Source of the DNA: a virus
DNA: 44,457 nucleotides
Reading direction: 5' to 3' (one strand)
Virus record (IMG/VR): IMGVR_UViG_3300017922_000005
Location: 1-44,457 of that record
Each line of letters starts with the position of its first letter. Position 1 is the first letter of the stretch. The position numbers were made by a program, and so were the translations under genes. Below, piece by piece: positions 1-20,995 of this stretch. The notes below the pieces were generated by a model. The model was not told the DNA's origin, did not search any database, and saw nothing but the letters and a program-made list of their open reading frames with translations.

Positions 1-138
1 CATTTTATGCAGCATTCGTTCTTGAACACAATGTGTATCATCACGTAGATAAACTGTATCTGTATGCCATTCAATTCCCACAACTGTCCACATCCTTTTC
101 TCAATTGTATCCCATGCTCTGAATTTAAGTTCTCTCAA
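1..138 (-). CDS. YopX-family protein, 5' part only (runs off the left edge); not in ORF track
   Basis: GGGGTGATGAT-TTG start overlapping the upstream TGA; translates MRELKFRAWDTIEKRMWTVVGIEW..., matching the MREIKFRAWD N-terminal signature of YopX proteins. Confidence 0.7.
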   Translation of the reverse strand, partial: MRELKFRAWDTIEKRMWTVVGIEWHTDTVYLRDDTHCVQERMLHKM

Positions 139-527
139 ATCATCACCCCATAAGTTATATCAAACTCTTTTATATCAATGATTTCTATAAGTCCAGCATC
201 GTGAACACAATGTTGTTTTTCAATCTGCTCTCGAAATATTGATGCAGCCTCATGCATATTTGGGGCAACAATTGTCTTATCGAATTCTTCTGATATTACA
301 TTATACATCTTCAATTTGCGCCCTTTATGAGTAGCATCAGTATCTTTTGTTTTCTCATCTTTCTGCCTCTCAAGATATTTATCATACACATCATTACTCA
401 TACGACATACTTTCACATCCCAGTCCATCGACTAAACCATATACCCATACTCTTTTACAAGATTCTGGATAAAATTATGTATCTTGCTGTCAATTTCTTT
501 TGATTCATTTACTTTAATATTGCTCAT
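135..527 (-). CDS. Hypothetical protein, 130 aa, with in-frame TAG at 432-434
   Basis: GAGTGATTGA-ATG start at 527; MSNIK...YGYMV-TAG-S-MDWDVK continues in frame into the track ORF 135..428, whose ATG lacks an RBS. Confidence 0.7.
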
Positions 528-531
528 TCAA

Positions 532-888
532 TCACTCTTCCCTGTATAGGACGATGGTTGTCATCTTGTCATGTACATATGAAAGTACTTTGCTAATCCC
601 CATTACCGTTGTAACGAAAATCACGGCGAGTCCTGTCGAAAGAGGAAGGGCCTCAGTAATTGTTCTTTTTGGGATGTTATTTGTGGCAAATATCCACCAT
701 ATAGAATATATTACTGAATATATGACGAATATAAGCACTAAAGAAAAGGCGATCCCTCTCAAAATACTCCACGGAGTGATGAAAATATCTCTATCAGGTT
801 CTAATCCAGTATATATTCTATAAGAATATAACATCTCTTCTCCGAATATTGCTAACAATATGTTTTTAACTTTATCTGCAATTTTCAT
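532..888 (-). CDS. Membrane protein (two hydrophobic segments)
   Basis: 118 aa; ATGA overlap with upstream gene; hydrophobic stretches GIAFSLVLIFVIYSVIYSIWWIF and LSTGLAVIFVTTVMGI. Confidence 0.7.
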   Translation of the reverse strand: MKIADKVKNILLAIFGEEMLYSYRIYTGLEPDRDIFITPWSILRGIAFSLVLIFVIYSVIYSIWWIFATNNIPKRTITEALPLSTGLAVIFVTTVMGISKVLSYVHDKMTTIVLYREE

Positions 889-1331
889 TCAATCAACTCT
901 GGATTTTCGTAGATGTTTCCAATTATTTCTACTTCGCCTCGTGAAATATATCCACCTGCACAGGAATCTAATGTGACAAAATCACCGTTGCCTACTTCTA
1001 CTGCCCACCTGCCACATTCCCATACAACATGTCGGATACACCACTGTTTATCATTACCGTTCAATGCTATTTTCACAACATCCCCTTCGTAAATCTCCTT
1101 GCCGTTTTTATCACGAAGTCCGGTGAATTGTCCAATTGTTTCAGGTTTGACTACATGTTTTACAGTACCAACAGCCAATGACTTTGTATCGTCATTATCA
1201 ATAATCCATGTGTTATGGGGATCTTGTAGAACTCCTGAACCGTGCACCATTTTGGATTCAAATTTATGCCGCCCAAAATTTTTCGGCGGTTTTGTCATCG
1301 CTCTGAATTTAATTTCTCTCATTTTTTCCAA
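885..1331 (-). CDS. YopX-family protein
   Basis: MREIKFRA N-terminus, TIGQFTGLRDKNGKEIYEGDVV and EIIGNIYENPELI motifs. Confidence 0.9.
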   Translation of the reverse strand: MEKMREIKFRAMTKPPKNFGRHKFESKMVHGSGVLQDPHNTWIIDNDDTKSLAVGTVKHVVKPETIGQFTGLRDKNGKEIYEGDVVKIALNGNDKQWCIRHVVWECGRWAVEVGNGDFVTLDSCAGGYISRGEVEIIGNIYENPELIE

Positions 1332-1620
1332 TCTCCTTCCATGTTTCCAGTGTAAGTTCTACAGAATCCCAATTTGAAACTGCACGGTCGTCTATATAAA
1401 TAGTTGCCCTGGGTTTGTCAAGCAGGATTTCATCATATGGAATCTCATGTGCAATAAGAAATCCCAATATTTCATTGTATCTCTCTACATTATTGGCAGT
1501 CCATATAGTTATATGCCAGCCTTCTTCACGGAGTTTCTGCATCATGGATTTAGAACGTGGGATTAACTCCCACGTATCTTCATCGCAGATTATTCCATCA
1601 AAATCTACAACCGCTCTCAT
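1309..1620 (-). CDS. HAD-superfamily phosphatase (small stand-alone viral type)
   Basis: DFDGII motif I, IWTA motif II, KP and YIDDR motifs III/IV. Confidence 0.85.
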   Translation of the reverse strand: MRAVVDFDGIICDEDTWELIPRSKSMMQKLREEGWHITIWTANNVERYNEILGFLIAHEIPYDEILLDKPRATIYIDDRAVSNWDSVELTLETWKEIGKNERN

Positions 1621-1626
1621 GTTCCC

Positions 1627-2004
1627 TCATACCTTAATGTTATAATCTTCAAAATCCAGTTTTTCCTTGGACATAATTTCAAGTACAACATCCTCGGTTT
1701 CTCTATCGAAATTCCGAATCTCCGGATTGATTTCATCTATATCACAACCAATGCGCCTGTGCCGATCTATGTTAGCCAATCCGGCTTCTTTTTTGAGTGC
1801 AAATATTTTGCCTTCAATTGGTTGCTTTTTGACTTTCAGGTCTTCAATTTGCTGGTTGATTTCATCTCTCTGTTCATAAAGGTCAGCGTTATTCTCTTTG
1901 AATTCTTGTAATTTGGATTTTACAAGTTCGCATCTTTTTTGTTCCCTACGCTGTCTGTACAACCTTTTTATGGATTCTCGCTGGTATTTGGGTGTTTTTG
2001 CCAT
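1627..2004 (-). CDS. Hypothetical coiled-coil protein
   Basis: 125 aa ORF in the tightly packed minus-strand operon. Confidence 0.7.
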   Translation of the reverse strand: MAKTPKYQRESIKRLYRQRREQKRCELVKSKLQEFKENNADLYEQRDEINQQIEDLKVKKQPIEGKIFALKKEAGLANIDRHRRIGCDIDEINPEIRNFDRETEDVVLEIMSKEKLDFEDYNIKV

Positions 2005-2005
2005 A

Positions 2006-2305
2006 TTATTGCTTCCTTATTGGTTCGAAATCTTTGAAAATTTTGAATATTCCATCTTCTGATAAACGTACTTCGGTGTGTCTGGATTCAGTTTCAGAGA
2101 TAAATAAGGTAATTCCTTTCTTATCAACATGCAAGAATGGATACCTATGTTTGTTCTCTATCTCTGCCCTCATTACATTCAGGCAGTTCTTACAGGTTAC
2201 TTCGTCGGGTTCCTCATTGATGAGGGCTTTCTCATTTAAATGAGCTCCGCACAATGCAGCACCATTCCTATTCATGTGTACCTTACGTACATGATTGCTA
2301 GTCAT
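2006..2305 (-). CDS. Hypothetical protein with possible H/C metal site (H..C...CKNC)
   Basis: 99 aa, operon packing with 1-2 nt gaps. Confidence 0.7.
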   Translation of the reverse strand: MTSNHVRKVHMNRNGAALCGAHLNEKALINEEPDEVTCKNCLNVMRAEIENKHRYPFLHVDKKGITLFISETESRHTEVRLSEDGIFKIFKDFEPIRKQ

Positions 2306-2307
2306 AT

Positions 2308-2568
2308 TTAATCTTCCTTCTCCAATGGTTCAAACGTTTTTCTGCCAATGGTTACCTTCTCCTTGGTTTCTTCTGCAAAGAAATTGAGCACTTTGGCAAG
2401 GAAAACTACCTGTTTCTTTTCAATAGCAGTTTCCCATTTAATATAATCATTTTCCGTCATACCAATAAGTATTTTACCACTATCATCTTCCTTTACAAGA
2501 ATACTGCGATCTCCATGTCCAGAAGATACCATTACCTTGTTCCTATATTCATCTGGATTCATTTTCAT
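2308..2568 (-). CDS. Hypothetical protein
   Basis: 86 aa, operon packing. Confidence 0.7.
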   Translation of the reverse strand: MKMNPDEYRNKVMVSSGHGDRSILVKEDDSGKILIGMTENDYIKWETAIEKKQVVFLAKVLNFFAEETKEKVTIGRKTFEPLEKED

Positions 2569-2717
2569 TTTCTTTTCTCCGGTTCTTCAAATTCAGTCTT
2601 ACATTGCCTACATCTATACTTGGGTTGTTTACGTACCCTTATGCGGAAATCGGCAGACTTACAGTTTGGGCAGGCAAGTCCGGAACTGTAAAGTTTGCCC
2701 TTTCTGAATTTTATCAT
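2565..2717 (-). CDS. Small Zn-ribbon protein, 50 aa; not in ORF track
   Basis: MIKFRKGKLYSSGLACPNCKSADFRIRVRKQPKYRCRQCKTEFEEPEKRK; ATGA overlaps with both neighbours; CxxC...CxxC. Confidence 0.75.
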   Translation of the reverse strand: MIKFRKGKLYSSGLACPNCKSADFRIRVRKQPKYRCRQCKTEFEEPEKRK

Positions 2718-5062
2718 GTTAAGAAATCCGCCAATGATCGCTGTCCTATCAATCCATTAATATCCCAGCCCATGGAGGAATACAAAAATTCCAGCTTTTT
2801 CATTGTAGCATCTCTCATTGCTTTATAATCTACAACTACTCCATCGGGTAGTGATGTATCCTCATCCACGGCAATGTAATTGGCTGGTGGATATTTGGAA
2901 GCTACCTTCTTGACCTTCACATAAAAGGGTTTGGTGCCTTCCTTGAAGTTCGTATTCAGGTTCTCATTTGACCACATGGCTGCCACTGCACGGTAGTAAG
3001 ATTCCGGATAGGCGTGCAAGGGCTTCTTGATTTCTGCCGGAACTCCAATCTCGGTTAATGGATATTGTCCTTTTTCCACTTTTTTTAATTCAGCAGAATA
3101 CTTCATATCCAATTCCCTCTTGGGCTTATAATTCAGAAGGTCAAGGATTAGTTCCTTTTGCAGGTTTCGTGCCAGAGTGGAAGAATCTGAACGAATAGCA
3201 TCAAAACCCTTCACTTCTAGCGCAGAAGGATCATCCTCATCAAAGGTGGTACCGTCAATCCACCAAAGTTTGATGGCGTATCTGGTCTTGCCTGAAAAAA
3301 TGCCGTTGCGTGCAACCTTTTCAAAGTCAATGTTCATCTTTGCATGTTCATATGGTATGTTGTATTGGCGTAGATGGAGAGGGAATTTACTATTCAGGTG
3401 TTCCTTGACTTCATTGCCGACTTCAATCAACTTCTTGAGACTATTGTATTTGGTTACGAAACCCACCGAATCCGTGTGCCCGAATACCCACTGATATCCA
3501 AGTTTGTTGACCTCATGTCCGCAGAAGTCAATTACACCACGGGTAATGTGTGTTACAGCATTGGCAATCCTCACATCATAAAACTTACAATGCTTATCGG
3601 CTACATCGCCATATACCGTGTTAATTGCTACCTTGTAGGCTTCACGGATTGCATTGGCAACCTTCCATTCTTTGGATTTATACTTTTCTTTATCTCGTTT
3701 CTTACCCCACTCGTCTTTCTTTTGAAAGATATCTTCAAGGAACGTCACGTATGCTCCCTTACGCACACGGTGTGGCATGAAGCACGTACCCCCGATATCA
3801 ATACAATCGTCAAGGGACACGCCTTCTGGGAGATTGGAGCCATCTTCATTTACCAATGTTTCTACAGACATATTACCGGACATCATGGAGAAGGGATAGG
3901 CAGAGGTCAAATCCTCAAATATAACATTCTCATGAAGTCCTACAACTGGTGGTCGGGGTTCGGCACCTTTTACCTTGCCATGCTCGGAATCGTGGGATGG
4001 GTATATGAACTGTGGCATTGCCCTACTCATGGCGGTTTCTACCATCTTGCCCGAATACAGGGTGTCTTCCAGATTGCAGCCAAAAATCCTATGGAAGGTA
4101 ACATGAGAACTCAAGATTGAAAGTTCCCTGTCAAGGAGCATCATCTTGTCCACATCATGATAATTATACTCCAATACTTCATCCGGATTCCTTGCCCATG
4201 CACGAGCAAGATATGCTGCATTCAATCCATCATATTTGGCAAGTCCAAGTTCCCTTTCCAGAATATCATTCAGGGAATTTTTAATATATTTGCGCCTCTT
4301 CAGTCTCAAATATCCAGCTCTGTAATCAAAGAGTGCTACTCCTTTAATCTTGGCTTTGGGATTCCCATTAAAGTCCACGTTCACACTTACCGACTTCATT
4401 GGACTTATTGGGCTAATGTCAATATTCAAAGTGTTACACCGTCTGATTATGTAAACAATATCATAACCTAACAGGTTAAACCCTGCAATGACATCCGGAC
4501 CGAATTTAGCAATATACTTTATCCAAGCATTCAACATCTCGGTCTCTGTGGGATACCAGTATTCAATCCTGCCTGCAGTATTGAACTTCTGGGCTTCCTT
4601 GATTGATGAGTGAAAGCAGAACTGCACGACCTTGCTGGAATGATTGAACTGGAAACCGATTATAATTATAGGCTCCGGTGCATCCATCATATACTTATTC
4701 GTGATGGGGGTATTATTGGAAGCTACCTCAATATCCAGTCCACAGACCAGAGGATCAGCTTTTTCTTCAAATCCTTCCTCTACTCTATCAATCCAGTATC
4801 GTGTGGTAAAAGGAGTCTTGGCTTCGTAGTGTCTATCACCACGTAATTTGCCAATGTCCTGTGCCATCTTACATTCGACTTTCTTGACTTTCACGCCATC
4901 CTTGGCAGTATAAACATCTCCCTCTTTGCATCCTTGCGGAGTAGGAACATCTACCGGAAGATAGAAGTAGGGGTGGAAATCCCACACTTCGTAGGACTTG
5001 CCTCCCCACGGAAATACTACAATTCCCGATCTATCGTTCTTGACAACCTGCTCGATCTGCAT
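2714..5062 (-). CDS. polB: Family B DNA polymerase with 3'-5' exonuclease domain
   Basis: ExoI DIEV, ExoII FNLLGYD, ExoIII YNYHD; motif A DLTSAYP, motif B KVAINTVYG, motif C FGHTDS; KTRYA and KGFDAIRSD. Confidence 0.95.
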   Translation of the reverse strand: MQIEQVVKNDRSGIVVFPWGGKSYEVWDFHPYFYLPVDVPTPQGCKEGDVYTAKDGVKVKKVECKMAQDIGKLRGDRHYEAKTPFTTRYWIDRVEEGFEEKADPLVCGLDIEVASNNTPITNKYMMDAPEPIIIIGFQFNHSSKVVQFCFHSSIKEAQKFNTAGRIEYWYPTETEMLNAWIKYIAKFGPDVIAGFNLLGYDIVYIIRRCNTLNIDISPISPMKSVSVNVDFNGNPKAKIKGVALFDYRAGYLRLKRRKYIKNSLNDILERELGLAKYDGLNAAYLARAWARNPDEVLEYNYHDVDKMMLLDRELSILSSHVTFHRIFGCNLEDTLYSGKMVETAMSRAMPQFIYPSHDSEHGKVKGAEPRPPVVGLHENVIFEDLTSAYPFSMMSGNMSVETLVNEDGSNLPEGVSLDDCIDIGGTCFMPHRVRKGAYVTFLEDIFQKKDEWGKKRDKEKYKSKEWKVANAIREAYKVAINTVYGDVADKHCKFYDVRIANAVTHITRGVIDFCGHEVNKLGYQWVFGHTDSVGFVTKYNSLKKLIEVGNEVKEHLNSKFPLHLRQYNIPYEHAKMNIDFEKVARNGIFSGKTRYAIKLWWIDGTTFDEDDPSALEVKGFDAIRSDSSTLARNLQKELILDLLNYKPKRELDMKYSAELKKVEKGQYPLTEIGVPAEIKKPLHAYPESYYRAVAAMWSNENLNTNFKEGTKPFYVKVKKVASKYPPANYIAVDEDTSLPDGVVVDYKAMRDATMKKLEFLYSSMGWDINGLIGQRSLADFLT

Positions 5063-5071
5063 TTTATTTCC

Positions 5072-5236
5072 TCACGCACTTGTAGTATGTCCATTAAATG
5101 GATATTCTACATTTACAATGGCAACACTGGCTTCAATGCCATCTTCCTCAAGGGCTTTTTTCAACAATTCCCTGATGTATGCTGGTGCGGTGTTTTCCTC
5201 GCCACCTTCTTCTATCCGTAGATCGAAGTACATCAT
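5072..5236 (-). CDS. Small hypothetical protein
   Basis: GGTGAT-ATG start at 5236 (track start 5257 lies inside the upstream gene). Confidence 0.6.
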   Translation of the reverse strand: MMYFDLRIEEGGEENTAPAYIRELLKKALEEDGIEASVAIVNVEYPFNGHTTSA

Positions 5237-5237
5237 A

Positions 5238-6128
5238 TCACCTTTTGAGGACTTCATTCACTTTGTCTCTCACAAAGGAATCCATCATCTGGAAGTCTGG
5301 CATTTCCAGTGTATCATAACAATGCTTGCCCAGCATCTTCTCGAAGGTTGCATAATGCACCTTTTTACCATCTACCATGTCGGAGTGGAGTTTCACGATA
5401 TTCTGGGTATCAAATGCCAGATTCTTTTCTGACCTGATTTCCCTTGCCTTGGCATTGGAATCTGTGTCATTTCTCCTTGCAGAATAAATGATATTGATTC
5501 CCTTGGAACGCAGAGCATTGAGCTGGAGTACCAGATTCTTGTGCTTCTGCTTGATATCCGACCATTCAATGTTACCATCCTGTGCAAGTTCAGTTATGGT
5601 CTTACCAGCCATCTGTGCCTGCTGTCTCTTACCTTCATATTGAATCTCATCCCAGAAATCGGACATTGATTCAACAGCAACGATAGAACCTTCAGGTACT
5701 TCTCCCTCTTCTACCAGATCGCAAAGTTGGGTTACGAACTTGTTGGTCTGGTCGAGGGTAACTTCTATATCCATTACGCTCTTGTATTCTCCATCTTCCA
5801 TTACCCTTTTCATCACTACAGGCTCGACCACATTGATATCATACTTCGTGTCCGGAAATTCTAGAAGGCTTGTATCCTGTGCTCGAAATTCTGTATCGAT
5901 AATGAATACCGGAGCTATATTGGCTGCCGAACAGATAGTATAAGTCTTGCCATCTCCGGTATCACCATACAGAATCCAGTTCATTCCTTTGAAGATTGTC
6001 CTCTTGGTAAAGAATTTCTTCAAGGAATCCAGCCCCTTCTTGGAAGGAGCCTTGGGTGGATTTTTCTGTGCTTTCTTCTTGGATGTCTTGTCTTCGGATA
6101 GTGCGTCCCAATCTGCAGCTGTCGCCAT
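5238..6128 (-). CDS. P-loop ATPase, AAA_24/Sak4-like (putative ssDNA-annealing recombinase)
   Basis: Walker A GDTGDGKT, IIDTE, VAVESMSDFW; adjacent to SSB and resolvase. Confidence 0.75.
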   Translation of the reverse strand: MATAADWDALSEDKTSKKKAQKNPPKAPSKKGLDSLKKFFTKRTIFKGMNWILYGDTGDGKTYTICSAANIAPVFIIDTEFRAQDTSLLEFPDTKYDINVVEPVVMKRVMEDGEYKSVMDIEVTLDQTNKFVTQLCDLVEEGEVPEGSIVAVESMSDFWDEIQYEGKRQQAQMAGKTITELAQDGNIEWSDIKQKHKNLVLQLNALRSKGINIIYSARRNDTDSNAKAREIRSEKNLAFDTQNIVKLHSDMVDGKKVHYATFEKMLGKHCYDTLEMPDFQMMDSFVRDKVNEVLKR

Positions 6129-6129
6129 C

Positions 6130-7365
6130 TTACATCACCGCCACATATTTTGCGTTGTCGTTGAGTTCGATTTCACCATTCATTACCAATTCGTTCAGGG
6201 CGTTTTTTACGGATTCAGTATCGTATCCATTGCTGACTGCCTGTTTGACTGCTTCTTCACTGGAAATACCATCTTCTCCAGCGTACATTACGACTTTTAC
6301 CATCAGGGAAGGTGTGGCAGTCTTGGTCTCCTGATCATCACCAATGTCGGCAACTTCTTCCTTGTCGTTGGATGCAATTTCTTCATCATCGGGCTGGTTA
6401 TAATCAATTGCCTGATCAAAATCTTCCACATCTTCGGGGTTGTACTTGAATTCAGGTATTGCCCAGATTCCCATTGCGGTCATGGTTGGTCCATAATCTC
6501 CTTTGCCCTTCTTGGCAGAGGCAAATACTATGATTCTGGACATCTCACCAAAGTCAATTGGTGTGGATTCCGGTACAAAAACATTCTGTCCGTATTCGGT
6601 CTCATTGTCCAGTTTAATTGTACGGGAGCCACCTGCATTAAGTTCCATGTCCACGGAAATTACATCGGCTTCCGTTATCAGGACATCTTTCTTGCCATGT
6701 GTTTCCACCCATTCGGGCAGTTTCTCAATCTCGATTTTGAGGTCTTTGAGATTCTTGTCCACGTATTCGTCAACCCTGATTTCGTCCCCATCAAGGATTT
6801 GCATCTTGGTGGACTTGGTACCATTCCAGACTCCATTCTTGCCAAGTTTACCATTGAGCCGGATTTGAGTAAACATTGGAATTTCCATATTCTTGGCTTG
6901 GTCTCCCTTGAGAATGAAAGTCGTAGGCTTCTTCTCCTGCAGGTCAACACCCCAGAGAATACGCATCCAATTTGGTTTCATTGGTTTACCAAAGTTACGA
7001 TTTTCCATCGTTTTGTTGTAATCAAGAAATTTGTCCCTATCCAGTGGAGTTCCGGATTCGTCGGTATAACCTTCTGCAATAGCCTTCTGGGGGTTGGACT
7101 GGAACAATTTTATTGCGTCTTCCCTTGCGTTTGCACTGGAGTCAAATGCATCTTTCTGTCCGAAGACTAACATATCCAGGTTTTCGGTGGGAGCACCAAT
7201 GGACTGTTTTTTGAATCCCAGCTGGAGCAGCCTCATTGCTCTTTTTTCGGCAGTTGGTTTTTCAAATCCCTTGCCGAGTTCGGTCTCAAGGTATTCATTG
7301 AATTTTGTCTGCGCTTCATCTACACTTACGGAATATTGCTTTGCTAGTTCTTCTACGGTTGTCAT
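6130..7365 (-). CDS. RPA-like ssDNA-binding protein (OB folds, acidic linker, C-terminal winged helix)
   Basis: Beta-rich middle, acidic linker, C-terminal ...KNALNELVMNGEIELNDNAKYV; position in replication module; inferred by eye. Confidence 0.6.
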   Translation of the reverse strand: MTTVEELAKQYSVSVDEAQTKFNEYLETELGKGFEKPTAEKRAMRLLQLGFKKQSIGAPTENLDMLVFGQKDAFDSSANAREDAIKLFQSNPQKAIAEGYTDESGTPLDRDKFLDYNKTMENRNFGKPMKPNWMRILWGVDLQEKKPTTFILKGDQAKNMEIPMFTQIRLNGKLGKNGVWNGTKSTKMQILDGDEIRVDEYVDKNLKDLKIEIEKLPEWVETHGKKDVLITEADVISVDMELNAGGSRTIKLDNETEYGQNVFVPESTPIDFGEMSRIIVFASAKKGKGDYGPTMTAMGIWAIPEFKYNPEDVEDFDQAIDYNQPDDEEIASNDKEEVADIGDDQETKTATPSLMVKVVMYAGEDGISSEEAVKQAVSNGYDTESVKNALNELVMNGEIELNDNAKYVAVM

Positions 7366-7408
7366 TTAATCACCTAAGTCACGTCGAGCCACGTGCTGTG
7401 ACAGAAGG

Positions 7409-7801
7409 TTATCGGCTGTCACCCACGCTGCTTATATTGTTGGTCTCTTCATCCAGCAAACCGTCATCTTCACGGATAACTGGATAAAGCATCTGCATTA
7501 CCTGCATAGGTAAGATTGTCCACACATTGCCTGTGGTATCGCCTTTGAATTGAAAGGCAAGCATCGGAATTTTGTCTTCACGCTTGGCTTCATAGATCAT
7601 CTCATCAAGCCATTCCTTCTTGATCGTTATCTGTTTACCACCCTTGGAATCTTTTATGCCGGAGTATTTGACTTCGATATAAAGTTCGTCATGTAAGGTG
7701 TCAGAGGCGGTGTGCCTTGATGAGGAGCCAGAGAGGGGAGTTCTGAATGTACCAAATGTCTTGGCAATTCTACGCTCCAATTTTTTCCATGCTTTACTCA
7801 C
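7409..7801 (-). CDS. Hjc-like Holliday junction resolvase, PD-(D/E)xK
   Basis: WKKLERRIA, SGSS, SDT...YIEVK catalytic pattern. Confidence 0.8.
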   Translation of the reverse strand: MSKAWKKLERRIAKTFGTFRTPLSGSSSRHTASDTLHDELYIEVKYSGIKDSKGGKQITIKKEWLDEMIYEAKREDKIPMLAFQFKGDTTGNVWTILPMQVMQMLYPVIREDDGLLDEETNNISSVGDSR

Positions 7802-8417
7802 TTAATGCCTCCTTCTCCTGGAGGAATCTGGCTTCCGGAGATTCTGGGCATTTTTCAGCGATCTGCTGATAAAGTTCCTTAATCTTTCTCTCCTGAAACT
7901 CAGTACGACATTCTTCGGGTACCTTTTCATAAGTGGATAGCATATTCCTTAAGACATCCGGACTTTCCACCATCTCATTAAATGTCATGTCCTGTACCTG
8001 CTGGTATTGCATCTTGTTGTATTCAATGAGGGCTGTCTTGAGTTCGTCTATGCGTCTGCGGTTCTGCTCTATCCGGTCTCCCTTGGTGTGCCTGTTCTCA
8101 TTCAGGAGCTTGAGCCACTCTTTCACGAAATCTATAGGCTCGCTGTTCTTCCGGATGTCATTGCTAACGTGCTCCAGTAGGTCACGTAAAATGCTTGGAC
8201 CAAGGATAAGGAATGCCTGTGATCCTCTACTCTTTATTCTGCCTCCACCAATTTCGTCTCTCAATTCATGGGCTTTGGCTTTGTTATCTGCCCTAATCCA
8301 TGCAGAGGGAACTGGACTTGCCCTGCCTACATTAGAAGATTTGAACTTTGCATTATCAATAAGCTTCCTCCATTTGAGCATGAGCCGACCATCATCAAGT
8401 CTATCTTTTACTGTCAT
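7794..8417 (-). CDS. Degenerate LAGLIDADG-like protein
   Basis: KLIDNAK in place of GLIDADG, then ...ELRDEIGGGRI...LRDLLEHV...DELKTALIEYNK pattern. Confidence 0.45.
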   Translation of the reverse strand: MTVKDRLDDGRLMLKWRKLIDNAKFKSSNVGRASPVPSAWIRADNKAKAHELRDEIGGGRIKSRGSQAFLILGPSILRDLLEHVSNDIRKNSEPIDFVKEWLKLLNENRHTKGDRIEQNRRRIDELKTALIEYNKMQYQQVQDMTFNEMVESPDVLRNMLSTYEKVPEECRTEFQERKIKELYQQIAEKCPESPEARFLQEKEALSE

Positions 8418-9076
8418 TTACCATACACTTCCTTCATGAACCCTTTACGGGCATCGCCCATTTTAAGTTGGACTAAATCCTGTTCGGTTCGTATATACTT
8501 TCTTGCTTTAATGTTTTCACCCATCTTGTCAAAAATTCTCTGTTCGAATTCATTTTTCATATCGGTCATAGTTTGAGGCGGTTTGGTTCTCGCCTGTCTG
8601 TGTTCATAATAAACTACGCACCTTATATGAAACTCATTAAGAAGCTCTCTCAATTCAGTCAGGAAGGTATAAAGACTGATGTGCCTCTTCTTACAGAGTT
8701 CAGCCTCAACTTTTGTGGCGTAGGCAACATACCAGTTGCCATAACCTTTGACATCGAACTGGAAAGTCCTATGAAAATCATCTACTTGTGTAAGGATTGA
8801 AATATATTTGGAGAGAGTACGCATTGAAATACTCCCTCCATAATTGTTCTCTGCCTTACTTATTATGCCATACTCTTCCCGTAAAGCATCCGGAATATCA
8901 CTCGTACACATTATCTTCTTGTTGAGGAGAAGATCATATAGTGCAGCCAGTGTTTCATAGTCCAGATGCCTTTTACGTTTAAAACTTTCAATCCGGTCAA
9001 GTTCTTCTTCAAGGTCAATGGTCATCCTAATGACCAATGGATTCTCTTTCTTCTCGTTCATTGGTCTTAAAGACAT
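8414..9076 (-). CDS. Hypothetical protein (possible HTH)
   Basis: 220 aa, GAGGTG RBS, operon packing. Confidence 0.75.
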   Translation of the reverse strand: MSLRPMNEKKENPLVIRMTIDLEEELDRIESFKRKRHLDYETLAALYDLLLNKKIMCTSDIPDALREEYGIISKAENNYGGSISMRTLSKYISILTQVDDFHRTFQFDVKGYGNWYVAYATKVEAELCKKRHISLYTFLTELRELLNEFHIRCVVYYEHRQARTKPPQTMTDMKNEFEQRIFDKMGENIKARKYIRTEQDLVQLKMGDARKGFMKEVYGK

Positions 9077-9085
9077 CTTTGCACC

Positions 9086-10135
9086 TCATTCTATCTTTAC
9101 CTTGATATTCTTTTTAATGTTTTCGTCCTCCACTTCGACGAATTTATCTTGCAACTGTTCCTTCTCCTGAATGTCCAGCATATCCGATGCTATGTGTTCC
9201 AGTGTGTCCTTTACTCCATGGCTTGCATCATGAGAGGACACGGAAGTTATGGCGTTTATAATACCCCACAGGTTGTCGGCATGAGCCCCGTGCATCCTGT
9301 CGTTTATGCGCTTCTTGACTTCCGTGGCTATTTTGCCAGACATCTTTTTCTCCAAGACGTAGTGATCTATCAAGTTGTTGGCTTCCTCTTTGGTAACAAG
9401 GATACTCTTTGCCCTGTCAATGCTTTCCAGTACGTTCCAAGCATTGTCTAATATTTCGCCTACCTTGATAGTAAACTCTTCCAAGAGTTCCTCTTTATTA
9501 CCCAGATGAGTCTCTGTGATGGATTCTTCTGTCTTGTAGGATACCATACCATTTTCGCATTCCAGTCTCTCAAAATAAAGGGAAACTGTTATGCTTCGTG
9601 TACCATATTCATTGTTCTTGATCTGCAATCCGGTAGAGATTATATCCCCGACCTCACCATCCGAAACATTGTCTTTGATAACGTATCGGGTAACATCATA
9701 ACCTCTGGGATAGGTTGTCTTGTACCTCATGGAATCTACTTGAGTTACACCTTCCTGAATCATTATCTCTTCGGCATAGTGTTCCAGTTCTTCCATGTCG
9801 ATAGGTACATAACTACTACCAACAACAGACATGATATCTCCGGTATCCTTCAATCTCCTGAAGATAAGAGGATTATTGTCCTTCCTCATGTGCAGCATCT
9901 CAAGGAATTTGGCATTAGTATTTGGGCAAGCACCATCCTCTTCCATTTCCTTGTCAAAGATTGACTTATACGCTCCGGTCATTCTAAAAAGTTTGGTCAC
10001 TGCAAATCCTTTGAGTTCAAGTGGTCCGTGTACAGTATCCAAAAGCATGTGGTTGTCTCCCACATACTTGGCATCTTCAATCTCGCTTCCCTTAATTTCT
10101 ATATTTTCCCATTTAGTCTCCGGTGGATAATCCAT
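9086..10135 (-). CDS. DUF932-like protein
   Basis: SVVGSSYVPID and FERLECENGMV (R.xC.NG) motifs typical of phage DUF932/LGT-TIGR03299 proteins. Confidence 0.7.
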   Translation of the reverse strand: MDYPPETKWENIEIKGSEIEDAKYVGDNHMLLDTVHGPLELKGFAVTKLFRMTGAYKSIFDKEMEEDGACPNTNAKFLEMLHMRKDNNPLIFRRLKDTGDIMSVVGSSYVPIDMEELEHYAEEIMIQEGVTQVDSMRYKTTYPRGYDVTRYVIKDNVSDGEVGDIISTGLQIKNNEYGTRSITVSLYFERLECENGMVSYKTEESITETHLGNKEELLEEFTIKVGEILDNAWNVLESIDRAKSILVTKEEANNLIDHYVLEKKMSGKIATEVKKRINDRMHGAHADNLWGIINAITSVSSHDASHGVKDTLEHIASDMLDIQEKEQLQDKFVEVEDENIKKNIKVKIE

Positions 10136-10140
10136 TGCTC

Positions 10141-10365
10141 TTACTCCTGTGGTTCTTCTTCGTAGCCTATTCCTAAGAAATACTTCATCATTGCTATAGC
10201 CAAGCCCAGAAAGCTAAATAATATAACAATGAGTCCAATCACAAAGATCGGTGTAACTCCAATCCCTGCACCTATTATGCAAAGCACGACACCAAGCAAA
10301 AACATTGCCCAGCCCTGTACCCACATTATTCTGGGGTCTGTTGACCTAAAGTTCGTGTAATCCAT
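10141..10365 (-). CDS. Small two-helix membrane protein
   Basis: Two hydrophobic segments, acidic C-tail. Confidence 0.75.
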   Translation of the reverse strand: MDYTNFRSTDPRIMWVQGWAMFLLGVVLCIIGAGIGVTPIFVIGLIVILFSFLGLAIAMMKYFLGIGYEEEPQE

Positions 10366-10366
10366 T

Positions 10367-10870
10367 TCATACCTCCGTTATTACTCTGTTACAGGCAGGA
10401 CAAAGCACCACCGATGTTTCACCTTGTAGGGTAAACACCACGCACCTTACTTGAAGGAACTTTGGTATATTACCACAAAAGTGACATCTGTGGAAATCCT
10501 GTCTGAGCGGTTCTCGGAATCTAAGGACACTAAGGGAATTGAAAGGTATCCCTACGGTTCCCTTATCATTCCTCACCACGGCAGGTATGGGTTTACTGGC
10601 TTCCCTGAAACGGTATACCCCACGTTTGGAATCTGCATACTCGATCAGGTGGGCTTCCAAGGATTGCTTAATTAAAGCTTTACATCTTCTTCTAGTCTTA
10701 TGATAATCCTCACCAGATTGCCTGCTGAAGAAGGTTGCCATCCTTGTTAAATTCCATCTGCGTGTTCCCATAACCAGCTTGAAATGCTTCAACATTTCGC
10801 TGCTGGTTAACGAAGATGAGGAGTAGTCCTCATCCACGTTTTTGTCCTCTCCATCACACATCAACATCAC
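10367..10870 (-). CDS. Putative DNA-binding protein (wHTH-like plus C-terminal CxxC...CxxC)
   Basis: CHFC and CPAC pairs; ATGA overlap. Confidence 0.7.
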   Translation of the reverse strand: MMLMCDGEDKNVDEDYSSSSLTSSEMLKHFKLVMGTRRWNLTRMATFFSRQSGEDYHKTRRRCKALIKQSLEAHLIEYADSKRGVYRFREASKPIPAVVRNDKGTVGIPFNSLSVLRFREPLRQDFHRCHFCGNIPKFLQVRCVVFTLQGETSVVLCPACNRVITEV

Positions 10871-11436
10871 TTATCGTCGCTACCCCTATACTTTAACTCT
10901 GCACCAAGTTCCCATAATTCCTTGATGAGGGGGTGAGCATTGGTGCGTGTGCCAGTGTACCAGAGTTGATCTCCCTGATACTCCGGTTCCTTGCCCAATG
11001 CAAGTACAGATTTCAGGAAGACAGCTTCAATACGTACCTTGTCTCCGGATTCATCAACACCTTCCCATCCAGCACCGTTCCATGCTGTGGCTCCTGTTTT
11101 CTTGATGATTCTCTTTATCTTGTTCTTGCTGTCGTGGTAGGTTCCTTCAGGGAGGAGGAAACCAATGGTAACCTCTTCCTCCCCTTCCTCCATAAGCGAT
11201 TCATACAACTGCTTTTCTTCTGCTGTCCTTTCAAACATATTCTCTTCCTCTTCTAGATTTTCCCATCTTATAGGAGCAGACAACCTGCCCCTTGCATGCC
11301 AATAATCATACTCTTCCTTTTCAAATGTCCGGTGACTCCCGCATTTCGGGCAGTGGTACTGAAGGCGTTTAACCTCAATATATATGCCTTCCCAGCCACA
11401 GCCCACACAAATCACTGGTGTCTTACTGTTCGCCAT
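10867..11436 (-). CDS. Hypothetical protein with N-terminal Zn ribbon
   Basis: CVGC...CPKCG. Confidence 0.7.
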   Translation of the reverse strand: MANSKTPVICVGCGWEGIYIEVKRLQYHCPKCGSHRTFEKEEYDYWHARGRLSAPIRWENLEEEENMFERTAEEKQLYESLMEEGEEEVTIGFLLPEGTYHDSKNKIKRIIKKTGATAWNGAGWEGVDESGDKVRIEAVFLKSVLALGKEPEYQGDQLWYTGTRTNAHPLIKELWELGAELKYRGSDDK

Positions 11437-11659
11437 CCATGTCTAGCCTCCTATTTTTATATGCTAGGACTGCCTGTTGAAGCACTTTGGAACTTTGAAC
11501 GCATACTTCTGCACCAGCAGTCATAGCATCTATGTCTTCATTCTCCAGTTCCCGTTCAATGATATTGCAAAGTTGCCTAACTCTGGTAAGGTCTGCAATA
11601 ACATTGCTTCTGCTTGCCGATACTGCCAATTCTCTCATTATCTTTTTTTGTTTGCTCAT
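11423..11659 (-). CDS. Hypothetical helical protein, 78 aa
   Basis: GGGAGA RBS with ATGA overlap gives start MSKQKK at 11659; the track start at 11812 overlaps the upstream gene. Confidence 0.65.
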   Translation of the reverse strand: MSKQKKIMRELAVSASRSNVIADLTRVRQLCNIIERELENEDIDAMTAGAEVCVQSSKVLQQAVLAYKNRRLDMDGEQ

Positions 11660-11877
11660 ACAAATTCTCCCTGTTCCATCATTATTGTTTCCAGTAGTCC
11701 TTCTGAATCTATCGTAAATTCCAGTCCACAGTCCGGACAGCAGAGCACGGATTCCATGCCCTCGTAAATCTCTGCCGGATCGTGGTTGAAGTATTGAACC
11801 TCTGCCATGCATTTTGGACAGTACACCGGATATTCAATGTTTATTCTCTTACCGATTATTGCGTAGTCTGTTCCCAT
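11656..11877 (-). CDS. Zn-ribbon protein
   Basis: CPKC...CPDCG; GGAGGA RBS. Confidence 0.75.
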   Translation of the reverse strand: MGTDYAIIGKRINIEYPVYCPKCMAEVQYFNHDPAEIYEGMESVLCCPDCGLEFTIDSEGLLETIMMEQGEFV

Positions 11878-11878
11878 C

Positions 11879-12184
11879 TTATTCCTCCTTGAGGTAGTAT
11901 CCTCTCTTGTTTATTTCATCTTCCAGTTCGGAGATGTCTGCATCATCAAGGGCTTCTTGCAGGTCTTCGTAGCAGTTTATACTATCTCTCTGCACTACCT
12001 CATGCAGGATTTCGTCATCATCTGCATCCAGTAAGGCATCCACACGGGCATAATAAACCTCGTCCTCGGTCATCTCTATTACTTCCCGTGCCTCTTCTCC
12101 ATCAAGAGTGTCCTTAATTATCTCAAGTCCGTATTCGTCAATTGCCATTCTGATTACTTGCTTTGCAAAATCCTTTCCATACAT
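11879..12184 (-). CDS. Acidic hypothetical protein
   Basis: 101 aa, GAGGT RBS. Confidence 0.75.
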   Translation of the reverse strand: MYGKDFAKQVIRMAIDEYGLEIIKDTLDGEEAREVIEMTEDEVYYARVDALLDADDDEILHEVVQRDSINCYEDLQEALDDADISELEDEINKRGYYLKEE

Positions 12185-12232
12185 TATTCATACCTCGTGT
12201 CTTTGGTCTGCCTGTCCCAATGATCCTTGTCC

Positions 12233-12535
12233 TTATAAATCATTGCGCTTTGCCACTAGTTTATAATAACTGTTGTTCCTATCAATGTATTCCTTATTAA
12301 ATGAAATACACCAACCCCTTTCTAAAAAAAGAAAGAAAAAATAAATTAGCATCTTTTTTATATTTTTTCTTTTCTTTTTTGTATTTGGTACTATTGCTAT
12401 TATCTCATTATCTCCTGTTTCTACAATACTGAAACCTTTCTTTTGTAGTTTATCTTTCAAGTCCTCTGTAGTTCTGGTTCCCAAGGACAAGGGTTTCTGG
12501 CACCCTCGTCGTTCGGGCTGAAGGTTTGGGATCAA
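12233..12535 (-). CDS. Hypothetical protein with AT-rich core
   Basis: GGAGG + 7 nt + TTG; the TTG overlaps (TTGA) the stop of the read-through upstream gene. Confidence 0.5.
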   Translation of the reverse strand: MIPNLQPERRGCQKPLSLGTRTTEDLKDKLQKKGFSIVETGDNEIIAIVPNTKKKRKNIKKMLIYFFFLFLERGWCISFNKEYIDRNNSYYKLVAKRNDL

Positions 12536-12780
12536 TCATCTGCCTCCACGATGTCCACCATAAACATTGTTATTCTACGTGCCTCTTCCAATTTGTCGGT
12601 TTCCCTCTTGAGTTCATTGACCTTCTAACCGATTGCCTTGTCTAGTTCCACGATAAATTCACGGGTGCTGTTTGTCCTCCGTGCTGTCTGTTCAATCAGC
12701 CAAGGCATGTGCTGGGATTGTGCTGTGGCTTCTCCAAGTACGGTATAGACCGATTCAAGATTAATGTTTGCTTTTGCCAT
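12532..12780 (-). CDS. Coiled-coil protein, 82 aa, with in-frame TAG at 12625-12627
   Basis: AGGTGATATC-ATG start; ...ELDKAIG-TAG-KVNELKRETDKLEEARRITMFMVDIVEADD-TGA; the TGA overlaps the next start. Confidence 0.75.
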
Positions 12781-12784
12781 GATA

Positions 12785-14296
12785 TCACCTGTTGTTGAAT
12801 GCTTCAAGTACCTCGTTCTTTGATCTTATAAACAAATTGTTCCAGTCGTTCCATTGTCTCCCCATCAAGCGCAAGACAAGTCCTTCCCTGCTGGCAAAGA
12901 GTTCATTGTGTTCGGAATACCAGCAGTGAGTATATTCATGGGCAGCCAGCATAAAAATTTCGATTCCGGTGGCTATTTTGCCCTTTGTACTCTCCACGGC
13001 ATTTGGATTGATAAGAAAAACTCTCTTGCTATCCTTCCTGAAGACTTTAGCGTTGCATTCTTTGTCAAAAGTAAATCCAACACCGATTTCTACGTTCTGG
13101 TTGAATTCTTCTTCTATCTTGAGGATTATGTTTGTCCAGTAGTGTAGGATGGTTTGAAGCTTCTTGGAATCTATCTTCATCGGATAGTTCTTGGTGTCTT
13201 CCCTTCTTTCCACCATGAACTCGTATCCCATTGGTCCAATTTCATGCTTGCTTCCTTCCAGCATGTCACTAACCAGCTGTCCAAGTTCCGGAAAGGTGTC
13301 GGATACTTGTTCTTCCACGGCTTTATAGTTAGTTATTCCGCTTGTGGTGTTCTGTGCTGTGATAGCTTCAATAAAGTCCTTCTTATGGTCTGTTACCTCC
13401 GGATGATGAAACTCATTCAGTTTGTCCATCACATTCAGTCCAGCAAAGGTGTCAATTACCATCTGCGGTTTCTTCTCCGTGGCTGATCTGGGATCAACGA
13501 TCATCTCGTTTATCTTTTCATCCAGTTTAGACCTGAATGGATAGACAAGATTATCCCTGTTGGCAGCAAGGAAATTGACGGACTCGCCCTTGAGTTCCAC
13601 ATAAACCGTGGACTCCAAGTTCGGCATCATTCTCCAAAACATAGGAATGCCACGGAGTCTCACGACCATTTTGCTACTCTCAAAGTCCTTGTCCACTATG
13701 AAATCCGCAAGTTCACTGCTCTTCAGAGTACCTTTGACCTTCTCGCATTTGACCTCTTCTCCATCAAGGCAAATTGTTGCCTCTGTGGAAAGGAAAGATA
13801 AAAAGTGTTCAACTTTGTATTTCCAGAAGCCAGCATCATAAATAGAGCCTTCTTCGTACAAATTGATTGATATCTCGGTGCCAATTTTGCATTCAGTCTC
13901 AATGCACCTAATTGGTTCCTTGCCAATCATTTCGTTGTTTATCTCATACAACGTCGTTCCGTCTTGAGAAGATTTAATCGACCATTGACTCCATGCAAAG
14001 AAAAGGATTTCCTTTGCCTTGCCGAATCCGCCAACGGAACCTTCCTTCTTCTGGGAACCACCAAGCACAAGTAACTTGTCACGAATAATGTTTGCGTTCA
14101 TTCCGCAGCCATCATCCACGACAGTTATCGTGTTGGCTTCCTTATCAATATCAATGCTTACCTAACTGGCTCCAGCATCCAGACTGTTCTGAATCGCTTC
14201 ACGAATCCATACCGTTGGTAGATCGTTTGAATAATCTGCTCTGGCATTTTTGCGGAAATAATCAGCACCTATAACAATATCTGCTACTTCTTCCAT
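12785..14296 (-). CDS. GHKL (HATPase_c) ATPase fused to a C-terminal zincin-like HExxH domain, 503 aa, with in-frame TAG at 14162-14164
   Basis: AGGAGG RBS; REAIQNSLDAGAS-TAG-VSIDI...TVVDDGCGM, GGFGKAK, GTEISI Bergerat motifs; HEYTH...HNELF at C-terminus. Confidence 0.85.
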
Positions 14297-14315
14297 TATA
14301 AACCTCCTTTAAATC

Positions 14316-14338
14316 CCAAAAGAAGACATCTCTTTTGG
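14316..14338. terminator. 8-bp hairpin CCAAAAGA/TCTTTTGG just upstream of the GHKL gene RBS
   Basis: Perfect inverted repeat seen directly; function inferred. Confidence 0.35.
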
Positions 14339-14434
14339 TCTGCTTGTCGCATCCTTATGCTGTGTCCAGTCCATGCTCTCGATGTCAAGGGAGTCGCTCT
14401 CTTTGGCTCCCTTGGCTATCTCCGGCTGGCTGTC

Positions 14435-15112
14435 TTACTCTTCTGGTGGATAGTCGTATTCGAACCTATCCATGGATTCCGCAACTGCTTCGTCAAATTT
14501 ATCGTTGTTGGCATTCTTGCGGAGTTTGGGGAAGGCTACAGTAATTATCGCTGTTTTGACTTTGCCAAAGTCTTCTCCAAATTTGGACTCTCCCATGAAG
14601 ACTGGTGCGATTCCCTTGATAAAGATGTCTTCAAGGTAGTTGGTCACCTGTTCCAGTTTGTCTTCTGGAAATTCTGCTTCCTCAAGGTATTCCCTGACCT
14701 CCGTGTCAAGGTCTGCGAAAGAATCCTTGTCCTCGGATTCTTCCGGTTCTTCTGTCTTGGGTTCCCTTTTCAGTTCTTTGGTTTCCTTCTCTGCCTTAAC
14801 TGCCGTGGTCTGTGTTTCCACCCTTGCCACCGTAGGCTCACTGAAAGGAGTTGGGAACACATCGTGGAGTTTGACTGGCTCTCCATTTTCATCAAGATAA
14901 TGCTTCTCCTCTGATCTGATATGTCTGCGAATGTTCTGTGTGGAGCACCCGAAATGCTTGGCAATGAGTCTGTAACCCCATGCCTTGGGTTCTTCCATCT
15001 TGTTCTCTTTTCTGTCGTAATAGTTGAGTTCATGCCTGCCAACATAAAGGTCAACTACTTCCTTGTGGTTGATACCGATATGTCCAGATTTTGTGGTCTG
15101 CTCGTTTGTCAT
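14435..15112 (-). CDS. HTH-containing protein with acidic linker
   Basis: YRLIAKHFGCSTQNIRRHIR HTH; GGAGG RBS. Confidence 0.75.
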   Translation of the reverse strand: MTNEQTTKSGHIGINHKEVVDLYVGRHELNYYDRKENKMEEPKAWGYRLIAKHFGCSTQNIRRHIRSEEKHYLDENGEPVKLHDVFPTPFSEPTVARVETQTTAVKAEKETKELKREPKTEEPEESEDKDSFADLDTEVREYLEEAEFPEDKLEQVTNYLEDIFIKGIAPVFMGESKFGEDFGKVKTAIITVAFPKLRKNANNDKFDEAVAESMDRFEYDYPPEE

Positions 15113-15142
15113 ACTCGTTCCTCCAATTCACTAAAGAATCAC

Positions 15143-15316
15143 TTAGAAACTCACCTGAATTTCTACTTCATCCGGAACCTTGCCCTCAAAGGCAGTCTTC
15201 CTGATGTAAAGTTGCCCGATGATCTCATCTTCACCCTTCACGGGCACTTCAGAGAATCTCACGGTATTCTTGGTTTCCTTGTTCTGTACGAAAGTCCTTG
15301 TGGTAGTATTTCCCAT
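15143..15316 (-). CDS. Small beta-rich protein, 57 aa; not in ORF track
   Basis: AGGTGAGAGAAA-ATG; MGNTTTRTFVQNKETKNTVRFSEVPVKGEDEIIGQLYIRKTAFEGKVPDEVEIQVSF. Confidence 0.75.
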   Translation of the reverse strand: MGNTTTRTFVQNKETKNTVRFSEVPVKGEDEIIGQLYIRKTAFEGKVPDEVEIQVSF

Positions 15317-15343
15317 TTTCTCTCACCTTTGCGTTTATTCAGA

Positions 15344-15405
15344 CGTTTATCTGTCCTGACTGATACCAGTCAGGATTCCAGTAAACGGAGGGAGGAATCT
15401 CCCTC
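15344..15405. terminator. Pair of intergenic hairpins (9 bp TCCTGACTG/CAGTCAGGA; 7 bp GAGGGAG/CTCCCTC)
   Basis: Perfect stems at 15354-15375 and 15388-15405; outer CGTTTA/TAAACG helix. Confidence 0.5.
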
Positions 15406-15592
15406 ACAAATACGATATCGGAATCGTTGAACCGCATCCATAAACATTCTTACTTGCTAACTAATCCTCCATGCATTCCTTACATGAATCGCAATCAACT
15501 CCGATATGCCCTTCAGGTGCCCCACAATCCTTACAAGCGTAGCACTTCCGCACTGCATAACATTGCAATTTATAAGGGCAAGGTTTATGCAA
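15404..15592 (-). CDS. Cys-rich microprotein (43 aa to TAG at 15461-15463, 62 aa if read through); not in ORF track
   Basis: GGAGTGA + TTG start; MHKPCPYKLQCYAVRKCYACKDCGAPEGHIGVDCDSCKECMED-TAG-LASKNVYGCGSTIPISYL. Confidence 0.55.
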
Positions 15593-20242: not shown

Positions 20243-20995
20243 ATAACAACACCAGTAAGAACATTTCACTGTAAGACAGGAAATATAAATAGAATACATG
20301 AAGTAATGGTGAGAACCATCCTGAATGAAGGCGAAGATATTGTCTTTGGAGATGCAAAAGAGCAGAAACACGCACGAAATATTTATGGTATACTGATTCT
20401 GGAAAGACCAGCCATTGTAAAAGCCATAGATAAAACTCCGGAAATGTATCCATGGGGAGGCAAGAAAGCCAGAATATTTAGGGATGAATTCCTTGCTGAT
20501 TGTAGGAGACTGGAAGTAAGCAAACAGGGATTTGATTACACATATCCAGACCTATTGAAATGCTTCCCTGCTAAGAATTCAGAATATGGAATGAATCAAT
20601 TTTACGTATCCCTCGATAAATTGAGAGAGGATATGAAAACTGGCATTAGCAGCAACAGAAATATTGGTGTACTCTATAATCCTTGTACTATGTATGAAAT
20701 GAAAAATCTTCCATGTTTCAATGAATTCCAAATAGTATATGAAGGCAATGCAAAAGGTTCTTTGAGACTGACTTTCCGTTCCCATGATTGGGGAACTGCT
20801 GTATGGGCGAATGTAATGTCCATTGCCAATGCTTTCAATGAATTGGTATTTAAGCCAGCAGACTGTAAGCTTGATAATATTATTATTAATTCTTATTCTG
20901 CCCACATATATAAAAACGATATGGGGTATTATGAAAAGATGTTAAATTCTAAAACTGCAAGAATGAAACAGGCAATATCCAGGACGATAAAATGA
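20243..20995 (+). CDS. Thymidylate-synthase-family enzyme; probable ATA start at 20243 (first ATG at 20306)
   Basis: LPCFNEFQ catalytic Cys, FRSHDWGTAVWAN, SAHIY; GGAGG 7 nt before ATA with an open frame TTPVRTF... Confidence 0.85.
   Translation: MTTPVRTFHCKTGNINRIHEVMVRTILNEGEDIVFGDAKEQKHARNIYGILILERPAIVKAIDKTPEMYPWGGKKARIFRDEFLADCRRLEVSKQGFDYTYPDLLKCFPAKNSEYGMNQFYVSLDKLREDMKTGISSNRNIGVLYNPCTMYEMKNLPCFNEFQIVYEGNAKGSLRLTFRSHDWGTAVWANVMSIANAFNELVFKPADCKLDNIIINSYSAHIYKNDMGYYEKMLNSKTARMKQAISRTIK

Follow-up and report, generated by a model that had tools for sequence, protein, structure and literature searches.

Does this virus read the amber codon TAG as an amino acid, and if so, which residue is inserted and by whose machinery? 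The window analyzed here (44,457 nucleotides) covers 44.5 kb of the genome (56.4 kb) of a tailed virus whose sources are shale and oil-field brines. A complete genome of the virus (G001), 98% identical to the window, originates from fractured-shale fluid (PMC5497025), a habitat of Methanohalophilus (PMC6048472). Pfam and PHROG matches recovered all Caudoviricetes hallmarks, namely the terminase large subunit, portal, HK97-type capsid protein, and prohead protease, and four features provide the genomic context:

22379..32934, plus strand: head module with terminase large subunit, portal, prohead protease, and HK97-type major capsid protein, without TAG
2714..5062, minus strand: family B DNA polymerase
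20306..20995, plus strand: thymidylate synthase, with the methanogen type TIGR03283 as top model, under the cut-off
33864..36842, plus strand: variable cassette with LamG-domain proteins in the window and another module in strain variants

The first-pass annotation had proposed a recoded, pyrrolysine (Pyl)-using archaeal virus with four reading frames that run through TAG. All four TAGs are present on the minus strand, and every frame runs on to a TGA:

12785..14296, minus strand: 503-aa GHKL (rIIA/MutL/Hsp90-type) ATPase with a C-terminal HExxH and TAG at codon 45 (14162-14164), based on Pfam, homologs, and fold
12532..12780, minus strand: 82-codon gene for a small helical protein with TAG at codon 52 (12625-12627), based on coding score and strains
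135..527, minus strand: 130-codon accessory gene with TAG at codon 32 (432-434), based on alleles and cassette
15404..15592, minus strand: Cys-rich 62-codon ORF with TAG at codon 44 (15461-15463), gene and read-through both doubtful

An archaeal Pyl code (“Genetic Code 34”) has been described, with proteomics in Methanococcoides burtonii and Methanomethylophilus alvi (Kivenson et al., bioRxiv 10.1101/2024.09.30.615893), and several properties of the viral genes can be set against it. The claim that no well-supported gene ends in TAG holds: all 68 accepted gene ends in the window are TAA or TGA, and TAG stops number 0/84 in G001 versus 12/118 in four syntenic relatives (Fisher p = 0.0016), where several of them terminate full-length orthologs of this virus's genes. 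Under table 11, a codon-model gene caller ended 37 genes of the window with TGA, 31 with TAA, and three with TAG, the latter at exactly 432, 12625, and 14162. When genes were re-called with TAG as sense, the split calls at these sites merged into three higher-scoring genes, and their read-through extensions had higher coding scores than each of 62 control extensions beyond genuine stops. TAG accounts for 3 of 13,579 codons, a tenth of the frequency of the second-rarest codon, and the share of genes holding it (3/69 in the window, 3/90 in G001) lies within the limit of at most about 5% set for Group C of Genetic Code 34. As the Pyl code also requires, stops are only TAA and TGA, and read-through in the virus never creates an out-of-frame overlap of >60 nt (Category 4, 0 cases). 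Codon 3 of G001:7346-8851 is a further TAG, but it lies within the GAGGT ribosome-binding site (RBS) of an ATG two codons on and was rejected. No PYLIS-like hairpin common to the regions after the four TAGs was found.

Contigs in assemblies from four studies span the TAG sites; none of the sequencing runs listed as containing the virus is an RNA run. TAG is retained at both 12625 and 14162 in 6/6 other strain assemblies, at 432 in 4/4 other alleles, and at 15461 in 4/4 other assemblies holding the ORF. Because independent assemblies (6/6, 4/4) carry the same TAG, these codons are not assembly errors, a possibility that the first-pass annotation had raised. Its observation is confirmed at three sites (432, 12625, and 14162), but reading the fourth TAG as a sense codon is unsupported. 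The coding score of the 62-codon ORF is negative on either side of TAG 15461, and 52 of the 62 controls outscore its extension, which makes the ORF itself doubtful; it has no Pfam match, and positions 15434-15601 are deleted in several strains.

The 30-codon extension at 12625 has a per-codon coding score of 0.26, the top of the four and above 62/62 controls. Read-through there restores a stop/start overlap, as had been suggested, with the TGA of the 82-codon gene overlapping the TTG start of the next gene; by the rules of Kivenson et al., the site belongs to Category 3. At 432, both halves of the 130-codon gene move jointly as one cassette, and one allele carries 10 synonymous and 1 nonsynonymous changes upstream of the TAG and 5 and 2, respectively, in the 18 codons downstream. 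The homologs of this gene are close alleles only, and no distant homologs of the 82-aa and 130-aa proteins were found. Persistence of TAG (rather than TAA) across the few independent alleles of the 130-codon gene is not significant alone, and site 432 could hold two abutting genes instead of one.

An ATG indeed lies two codons past TAG 432, leaving 3 nt in between, a usual spacing in this genome, which fits a reading of the TAGs as true stops. The GHKL gene would then be a pseudogene or split gene, 432 would lie between two small genes, 12625 would end a 51-aa protein, and the lack of TAG stops would reflect avoidance in a Pyl host. All three genes are split in databases, and the TAG at 15461 may well terminate translation or lie in non-coding sequence. 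We nevertheless regard this reading as very unlikely, since the only TAG stops of the genome would all chance to precede in-frame coding sequence, and since the GHKL gene argues against it.

Site 14162 in this gene is decisive, and is the only one with distant homologs spanning the TAG. A Pfam HATPase_c_3 match covers residues 31–117 and crosses codon 45, and homologs of 490–510 aa align over the whole length, with 41–45% identity to relatives across the TAG (Category 1, an internal TAG with homology on both sides, the class expected of most TAGs under Group C), in agreement with the suggestion that read-through restores a complete domain. The TAG column, alignable on both sides, holds H, R, E, K, N, or L (R in E. 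coli MutL), with the codons GAA in L022, CAT in L218, and AAC in L024. Near-identical sequences carry no sense codon there among the 15 of 25 cluster members listed, all of which are truncated products of ≤444 aa; databases annotate the ATPase as a 438–444-aa fragment without Pfam match. The GHKL superfamily motifs (N-box ExxxNSxDA, G1 DxGxGM, G2, one Bergerat fold) are complete only with read-through: E33, N37, and D40 precede the TAG, and D61, G63, G65, and GGFGKAKE come after it. The predicted fold resembles Hsp90 and rIIA, and in the structure model residue 45 follows the N-box helix and precedes the G1-box strand, opening strand 45–51 in a core with pLDDT 92–95. A stop at codon 45 would separate the two boxes, N and G1. 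The gene is nevertheless under purifying selection (14 synonymous and 7 nonsynonymous changes among strains; pN/pS 0.13–0.21; binomial p ≤ 4e-4) and shows no other lesion in any strain. The first in-frame start past the TAG, a GTG at +15, has no RBS.

The host was approached through CRISPR spacers. Spacers of a Methanosarcinaceae genus, which we infer to be Methanohalophilus, match strain variants of the virus perfectly (35/35, 36/36, and 37/37) with consistent PAMs. The 35/35 spacer comes from the second array of genome G048 itself and targets L003 and L005 with a CCT PAM. The other two derive from metagenome arrays with flanking sequence that matches G048 (in one case at 99.9% over 3.9 kb) and target L004 (36/36) and L217 and L223 (37/37) with a TTA PAM. 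L003–L005 have 99% DNA identity to the virus over 2.6–4.3 kb and a capsid protein in common with it, L217 and L223 bear the TAG-432 gene, and variants with an identical capsid protein have a different module at the 33864..36842 cassette, bearing two perfect protospacers. The perfectly matched protospacers sit in exchangeable cassettes, which other viruses may share. The window strain itself has weaker matches, 27/35 at most, against a chance level at which the best matches of most spacers have at least 11 mismatches:

435..469, minus strand: degenerate protospacer (27/35) next to TTA, the PAM of host array 1
34353..34387, plus strand: degenerate protospacer (27/35 here, 28/35 in G001) next to CCT, the PAM of host array 2 (G048)

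The window strain would probably have the same host as these variants. When 177 Methanosarcinaceae and 11 Methanohalophilus genomes were searched at the DNA level, all matches outside CRISPR arrays were at chance level, and since few candidates were scored per genome, this null result shows nothing. The viral PurA-like protein was uninformative about the host.

Both pylS and pylT are present in 5/5 genomes of the spacer-linked genus, which supports the earlier proposal of a Pyl-decoding host. In G048, PylS scores over the cut-off, pylT is present, and a radical-SAM gene follows pylS; about 3% of calls (400 kb) end in TAG, and internal TAGs occur in MtmB, a Cas3, a GDP-mannose dehydratase, a histidine kinase, and a transposase. 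Methanohalophilus is among the genera rich in internal-TAG genes (Kivenson et al., 10.1101/2024.09.30.615893). The window and G001 have no Rfam matches, and the complete virus genome has neither a tRNA nor a pylT-like gene, so decoding must be host-supplied, as had been argued from the lack of pylT and pylS in the window.

Code-15 phages tend to encode suppressor tRNAs. Decoding of TAG by such a tRNA as a standard amino acid (Gln or other), as in the code-15 crAss-like and Lak phages, is extremely unlikely here. TAG-to-Gln recoding is proven in crAss-like phages, code-15 genes are likewise split by TAG under table 11 (PMC9523058), and sequence alone names no residue. However, code-15 phages differ from their host's code and use TAG frequently, whereas this virus appears to follow its host's code, with 3 TAGs in 13,579 codons, no tRNA, and a residue that would be non-standard. 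Neither frequent TAG aligned with Gln nor a viral suppressor tRNA was found; Gln is absent from the TAG-45 column among 16 aligned homologs, and the linked host has a CUA tRNA-Pyl.

Very probably, then, the virus shares the Pyl code of Methanohalophilus (code 34), with TAG kept off gene ends and host Pyl inserted at internal TAGs. The host would be a halophilic, methylamine-using member of the Methanosarcinaceae (Methanohalophilus) in which UAG means Pyl in many genes. Its Pyl-tRNA(CUA) would decode every viral UAG, and selection is therefore proposed to have cleared TAG from gene ends. In functional genes, TAG would have arisen by drift at a few exposed surface sites that tolerate change (3 in about 13,600 codons). 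There, Pyl made by the host would replace a long residue, for example Lys, Arg, or Glu; the virus itself supplies no decoding machinery. The identity of the residue as Pyl follows from the host link, and in the GHKL ATPase it would probably be structurally neutral. Of the original description as a recoded, Pyl-using virus, TAG as sense at three sites and the link to a Pyl host stand; relative to its host, the virus is not recoded but shares the host's code.

The virus would also resemble Methanosarcina acetivorans, whose amber codon is ambiguous, in relying on host-supplied Pyl at any UAG with no need for an insertion element and with low TAG-stop use (PMC12626013; PMC13663744). TAG is present in about 5% of genes in M. 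acetivorans, where both products are made, whereas the virus has no supported TAG stop. Since UAG is ambiguous in M. acetivorans (PMC12626013), viral read-through may be partial. One could then imagine a nutrient-sensing switch, in which Pyl supply (methylamine growth) raises early-gene read-through of the GHKL ATPase and the next gene. All of the three good TAGs belong to the early/replication arm, where two occupy neighboring genes; every strain carries them although codons nearby vary; and tRNA-Pyl charging in M. acetivorans depends on methylamines (PMC13663744). We consider such a switch improbable: the early-arm bias is not significant (p about 0.10), the TAG column varies among homologs as neutral drift predicts, and fixation among strains 1–2% apart is expected without selection. 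Methanohalophilus is, moreover, an obligate methylotroph, and a constitutive Pyl system has been proposed for obligate methylotrophs. It is likewise unlikely that the virus uses amber read-through more broadly, with the GHKL TAG (and the next gene) tying early expression to Pyl supply and/or locking the virus to Pyl-coded hosts, in which case Pyl would act as a determinant of viral regulation or host range.

Under the shared-code reading, viral TAG use is what the host's code would lead one to expect and involves no new mechanism. In Code 34 cells and in the virus alike, TAG is rare and internal, lies at variable positions of non-methyltransferase proteins, is accompanied by stops that are only TAA or TGA, and on read-through gives no large out-of-frame overlap. 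The virus differs from these cells in lacking pyl genes and depending on its host. Code 34 has been described for cells, their transposases, and casposons, in a text that does not mention viruses (Kivenson et al., 10.1101/2024.09.30.615893), and we found no published report of Pyl in viral proteins; metaproteomes of shale microcosms that include Methanohalophilus and peptides from viruses are available (PMC6048472). In practical terms, databases mis-annotate the TAG-containing genes, and TAG use offers a host-prediction signal for methanogen viruses. Most likely, this virus builds some of its proteins with host pyrrolysine; if so, the 22nd amino acid reaches viral proteins, and the lineage, which apparently moved to its host's code while relatives at 42–49% protein identity still stop at TAG, provides a natural record of code adaptation.

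The window is a 44,457-bp portion of a tailed dsDNA virus genome with genes for a family B polymerase, terminase, portal, prohead protease, major capsid protein, and tape-measure-like protein. Most of it is 98–99% identical to a complete 56,499-bp genome with terminal repeats (G001, IMGVR_UViG_3300006807_000001), sampled from fractured-shale produced fluid (PMC5497025), and the DNA was present in 20 public runs from subsurface, groundwater, and oil-field metagenomes. Four relatives (L022, L218, L237, and L240) are syntenic with the window at 42–49% mean protein identity and 34–45% GC.

The first-pass annotation held that TAG appears to be a sense codon in this virus, and its four in-frame TAGs are all present:

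14162–14164, minus strand: TAG at codon 45 of a 503-aa GHKL ATPase (12785–14296), in which Pfam HATPase_c_3 covers residues 31–117
12625–12627, minus strand: TAG inside a read-through frame
432–434, minus strand: TAG between two halves of an accessory gene
15461–15463, minus strand: TAG in a short ORF

Table 11 gene calls in the window comprised 68 TAA/TGA ends and 3 TAG ends (432, 12625, and 14162), and with TAG as sense each of these three fused into one higher-scoring gene; G001 behaved identically in both respects. As a regular gene end, TAG was found in 0 of 84 G001 genes vs 12 of 118 in the four relatives (p = 0.0016), several of them at the C-terminus of full-length orthologs (e.g. the GHKL ATPase in L022 and the polymerase in L240); no homology-supported internal TAG was found in these four genomes. 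Because TAG-stop users occupy several separate branches around the window in the tree of a shared AAA_24 protein (unrooted, with low support at the window's own fork), we infer that loss of TAG stops is most simply a derived change in the window's lineage.

Homologs of the GHKL ATPase (∼490–510 aa) align over their entire length, across the TAG, and reach 45% identity; its column holds H, R, E, K, N, or L in these homologs and R in MutL. In the structure model, whose fold resembles Hsp90/TRAP1 and phage rIIA proteins, residue 45 opens the strand that follows the N-box helix and precedes the G1 strand, and this region is the best predicted of the model. An assembly error is contradicted by TAG in 6/6 other strains examined. 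These strains differ by 14 synonymous vs 7 non-synonymous changes (pN/pS 0.13–0.21, p ≤ 4e-4) and show no lesion besides the TAG; therefore, this is a working gene carrying a fixed internal TAG. Its C-terminus has a conserved HExxH region (H453, E454, H457, and H463), and the family, with 200+ members in environmental viruses, has no named function, the nearest folds being rIIA-like.

Read-through had also been credited with restoring a start, domain, or stop/start overlap at the first three TAGs, which holds for the domain at 14162 and for 12625, where the frame ends at a TGA overlapping the next gene's start. TAG 12625 is kept in six strains, and the 30 codons past it are strongly coding-like with no RBS-bearing start of their own; no distant homolog of the read-through protein was found. 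At 432, the halves travel as a single cassette and four further alleles retain the TAG; in one of these, the part upstream has 10 synonymous changes and 1 non-synonymous change. However, an ATG two codons after this TAG may mark the start of a second gene. We excluded 15461 from the evidence, given poor coding scores on both sides and deletion of the ORF in several strains. In oil-field strains, a 166-bp deletion at 15434–15601 removes this Cys-rich ORF, leaving its final codons fused to the 45-codon ORF upstream. Window 100–1320 holds hypervariable accessory genes shuffling between short shared repeats (YopX-type starts at ∼109–135 and 1071–1130), and several strains skip or replace 522–1318.

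For host prediction, Methanosarcinaceae genomes were gathered by pylT pattern and an 11-genome genus was chosen, probably Methanohalophilus judging partly from its position within the family. Its CRISPR repeat pulled 13 metagenome arrays, and 371 + 116 spacers were compared with the virus sequences. Three spacers matched strain variants perfectly: 36/36 to L004 and 37/37 to L217/L223, both with a 5′ TTA PAM, and 35/35 to L003/L005 with a CCT PAM, the last belonging to a genome of the genus itself (G048). About eight further spacers match at 4–8 mismatches, mostly with the same PAMs; two of these matches fall in the window, each at 27/35 (435–469 and 34353–34387). None of the spacers matched the four distant relatives. 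L003–L005 have a capsid region in common with the window at 99%, and the TAG-432 gene occurs in L217/L223. Each perfect protospacer sits in an exchangeable cassette that has been replaced in the window strain; therefore, the host link is to strain variants, and the replacement fits escape from host spacers. The cassette after the capsid genes (33864–36842) encodes LamG proteins here and a different module in L003–L005, despite an identical capsid protein; most host spacers target the latter module. A second variable tail module lies close to the end of the window (44306–44457), at the point of divergence from G001, which has a DNRLRE-domain tail gene there (7346–8851).

The linked host has the anticipated amber-decoding system, with PylS and tRNA-Pyl(CUA) in G048, and Methanohalophilus is among the genera rich in internal-TAG genes (Kivenson et al., 10.1101/2024.09.30.615893). 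Across 400 kb of G048 sequence, ∼3% of calls are TAG-ended, and read-through places TAG inside MtmB, Cas3, and Pfam domains of GDP-mannose dehydratase, histidine kinase, and transposase. With an in-frame TAG at codon 151 of its type I Cas3 (L206:14300–16510; G048:C17 in the host), host CRISPR interference would itself need pyrrolysine. As previously noted for the window, the virus lacks pylT by pylT search, and no tRNA genes were found in the window or G001 (ARAGORN, default thresholds). Together with TAG at 3/13,579 codons, this excludes a phage-style code-15 system, in which TAG is read as Gln; the rarity resembles that of pyrrolysine in Pyl-coded proteomes.

No insertion signal is common to the TAG sites, and none is required for pyrrolysine insertion at UAG (PMC13663744). 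Host Pyl-tRNA would decode viral UAG without a signal; TAG stops, yielding extended proteins, would have been purged from viral gene ends, and TAG may then have appeared at tolerant surface sites, e.g. one step from GAG/AAG. An intact GHKL ATPase requires read-through, which may be complete or, as in M. acetivorans (PMC12626013), partial. The TAGs could also serve regulation, but this reading lacks support (p ∼ 0.10 for the arm bias).

Outside the window, G001 carries a PurA-like gene (13454–14503, minus strand) in which Ser replaces the catalytic Asp of PurA (GLQYGSEGKGK). Its best PDB match is 7VF6, which we take to be PurZ0, and NCBIfam PurZ scores 226 bits, below cut-off; homologs in L237 and L240 adjoin NrdD and thymidylate kinase. 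An archaeal virus family with a 2-aminoadenine (Z) DNA pathway is possible.

The pyrrolysine code is already known in cells; we found no publication on a virus with it, within thin coverage of subscription papers. This case adds a TAG placed within the conserved core of an enzyme whose gene is under purifying selection, a pyrrolysine host linked through spacers, and relatives that still stop at TAG.
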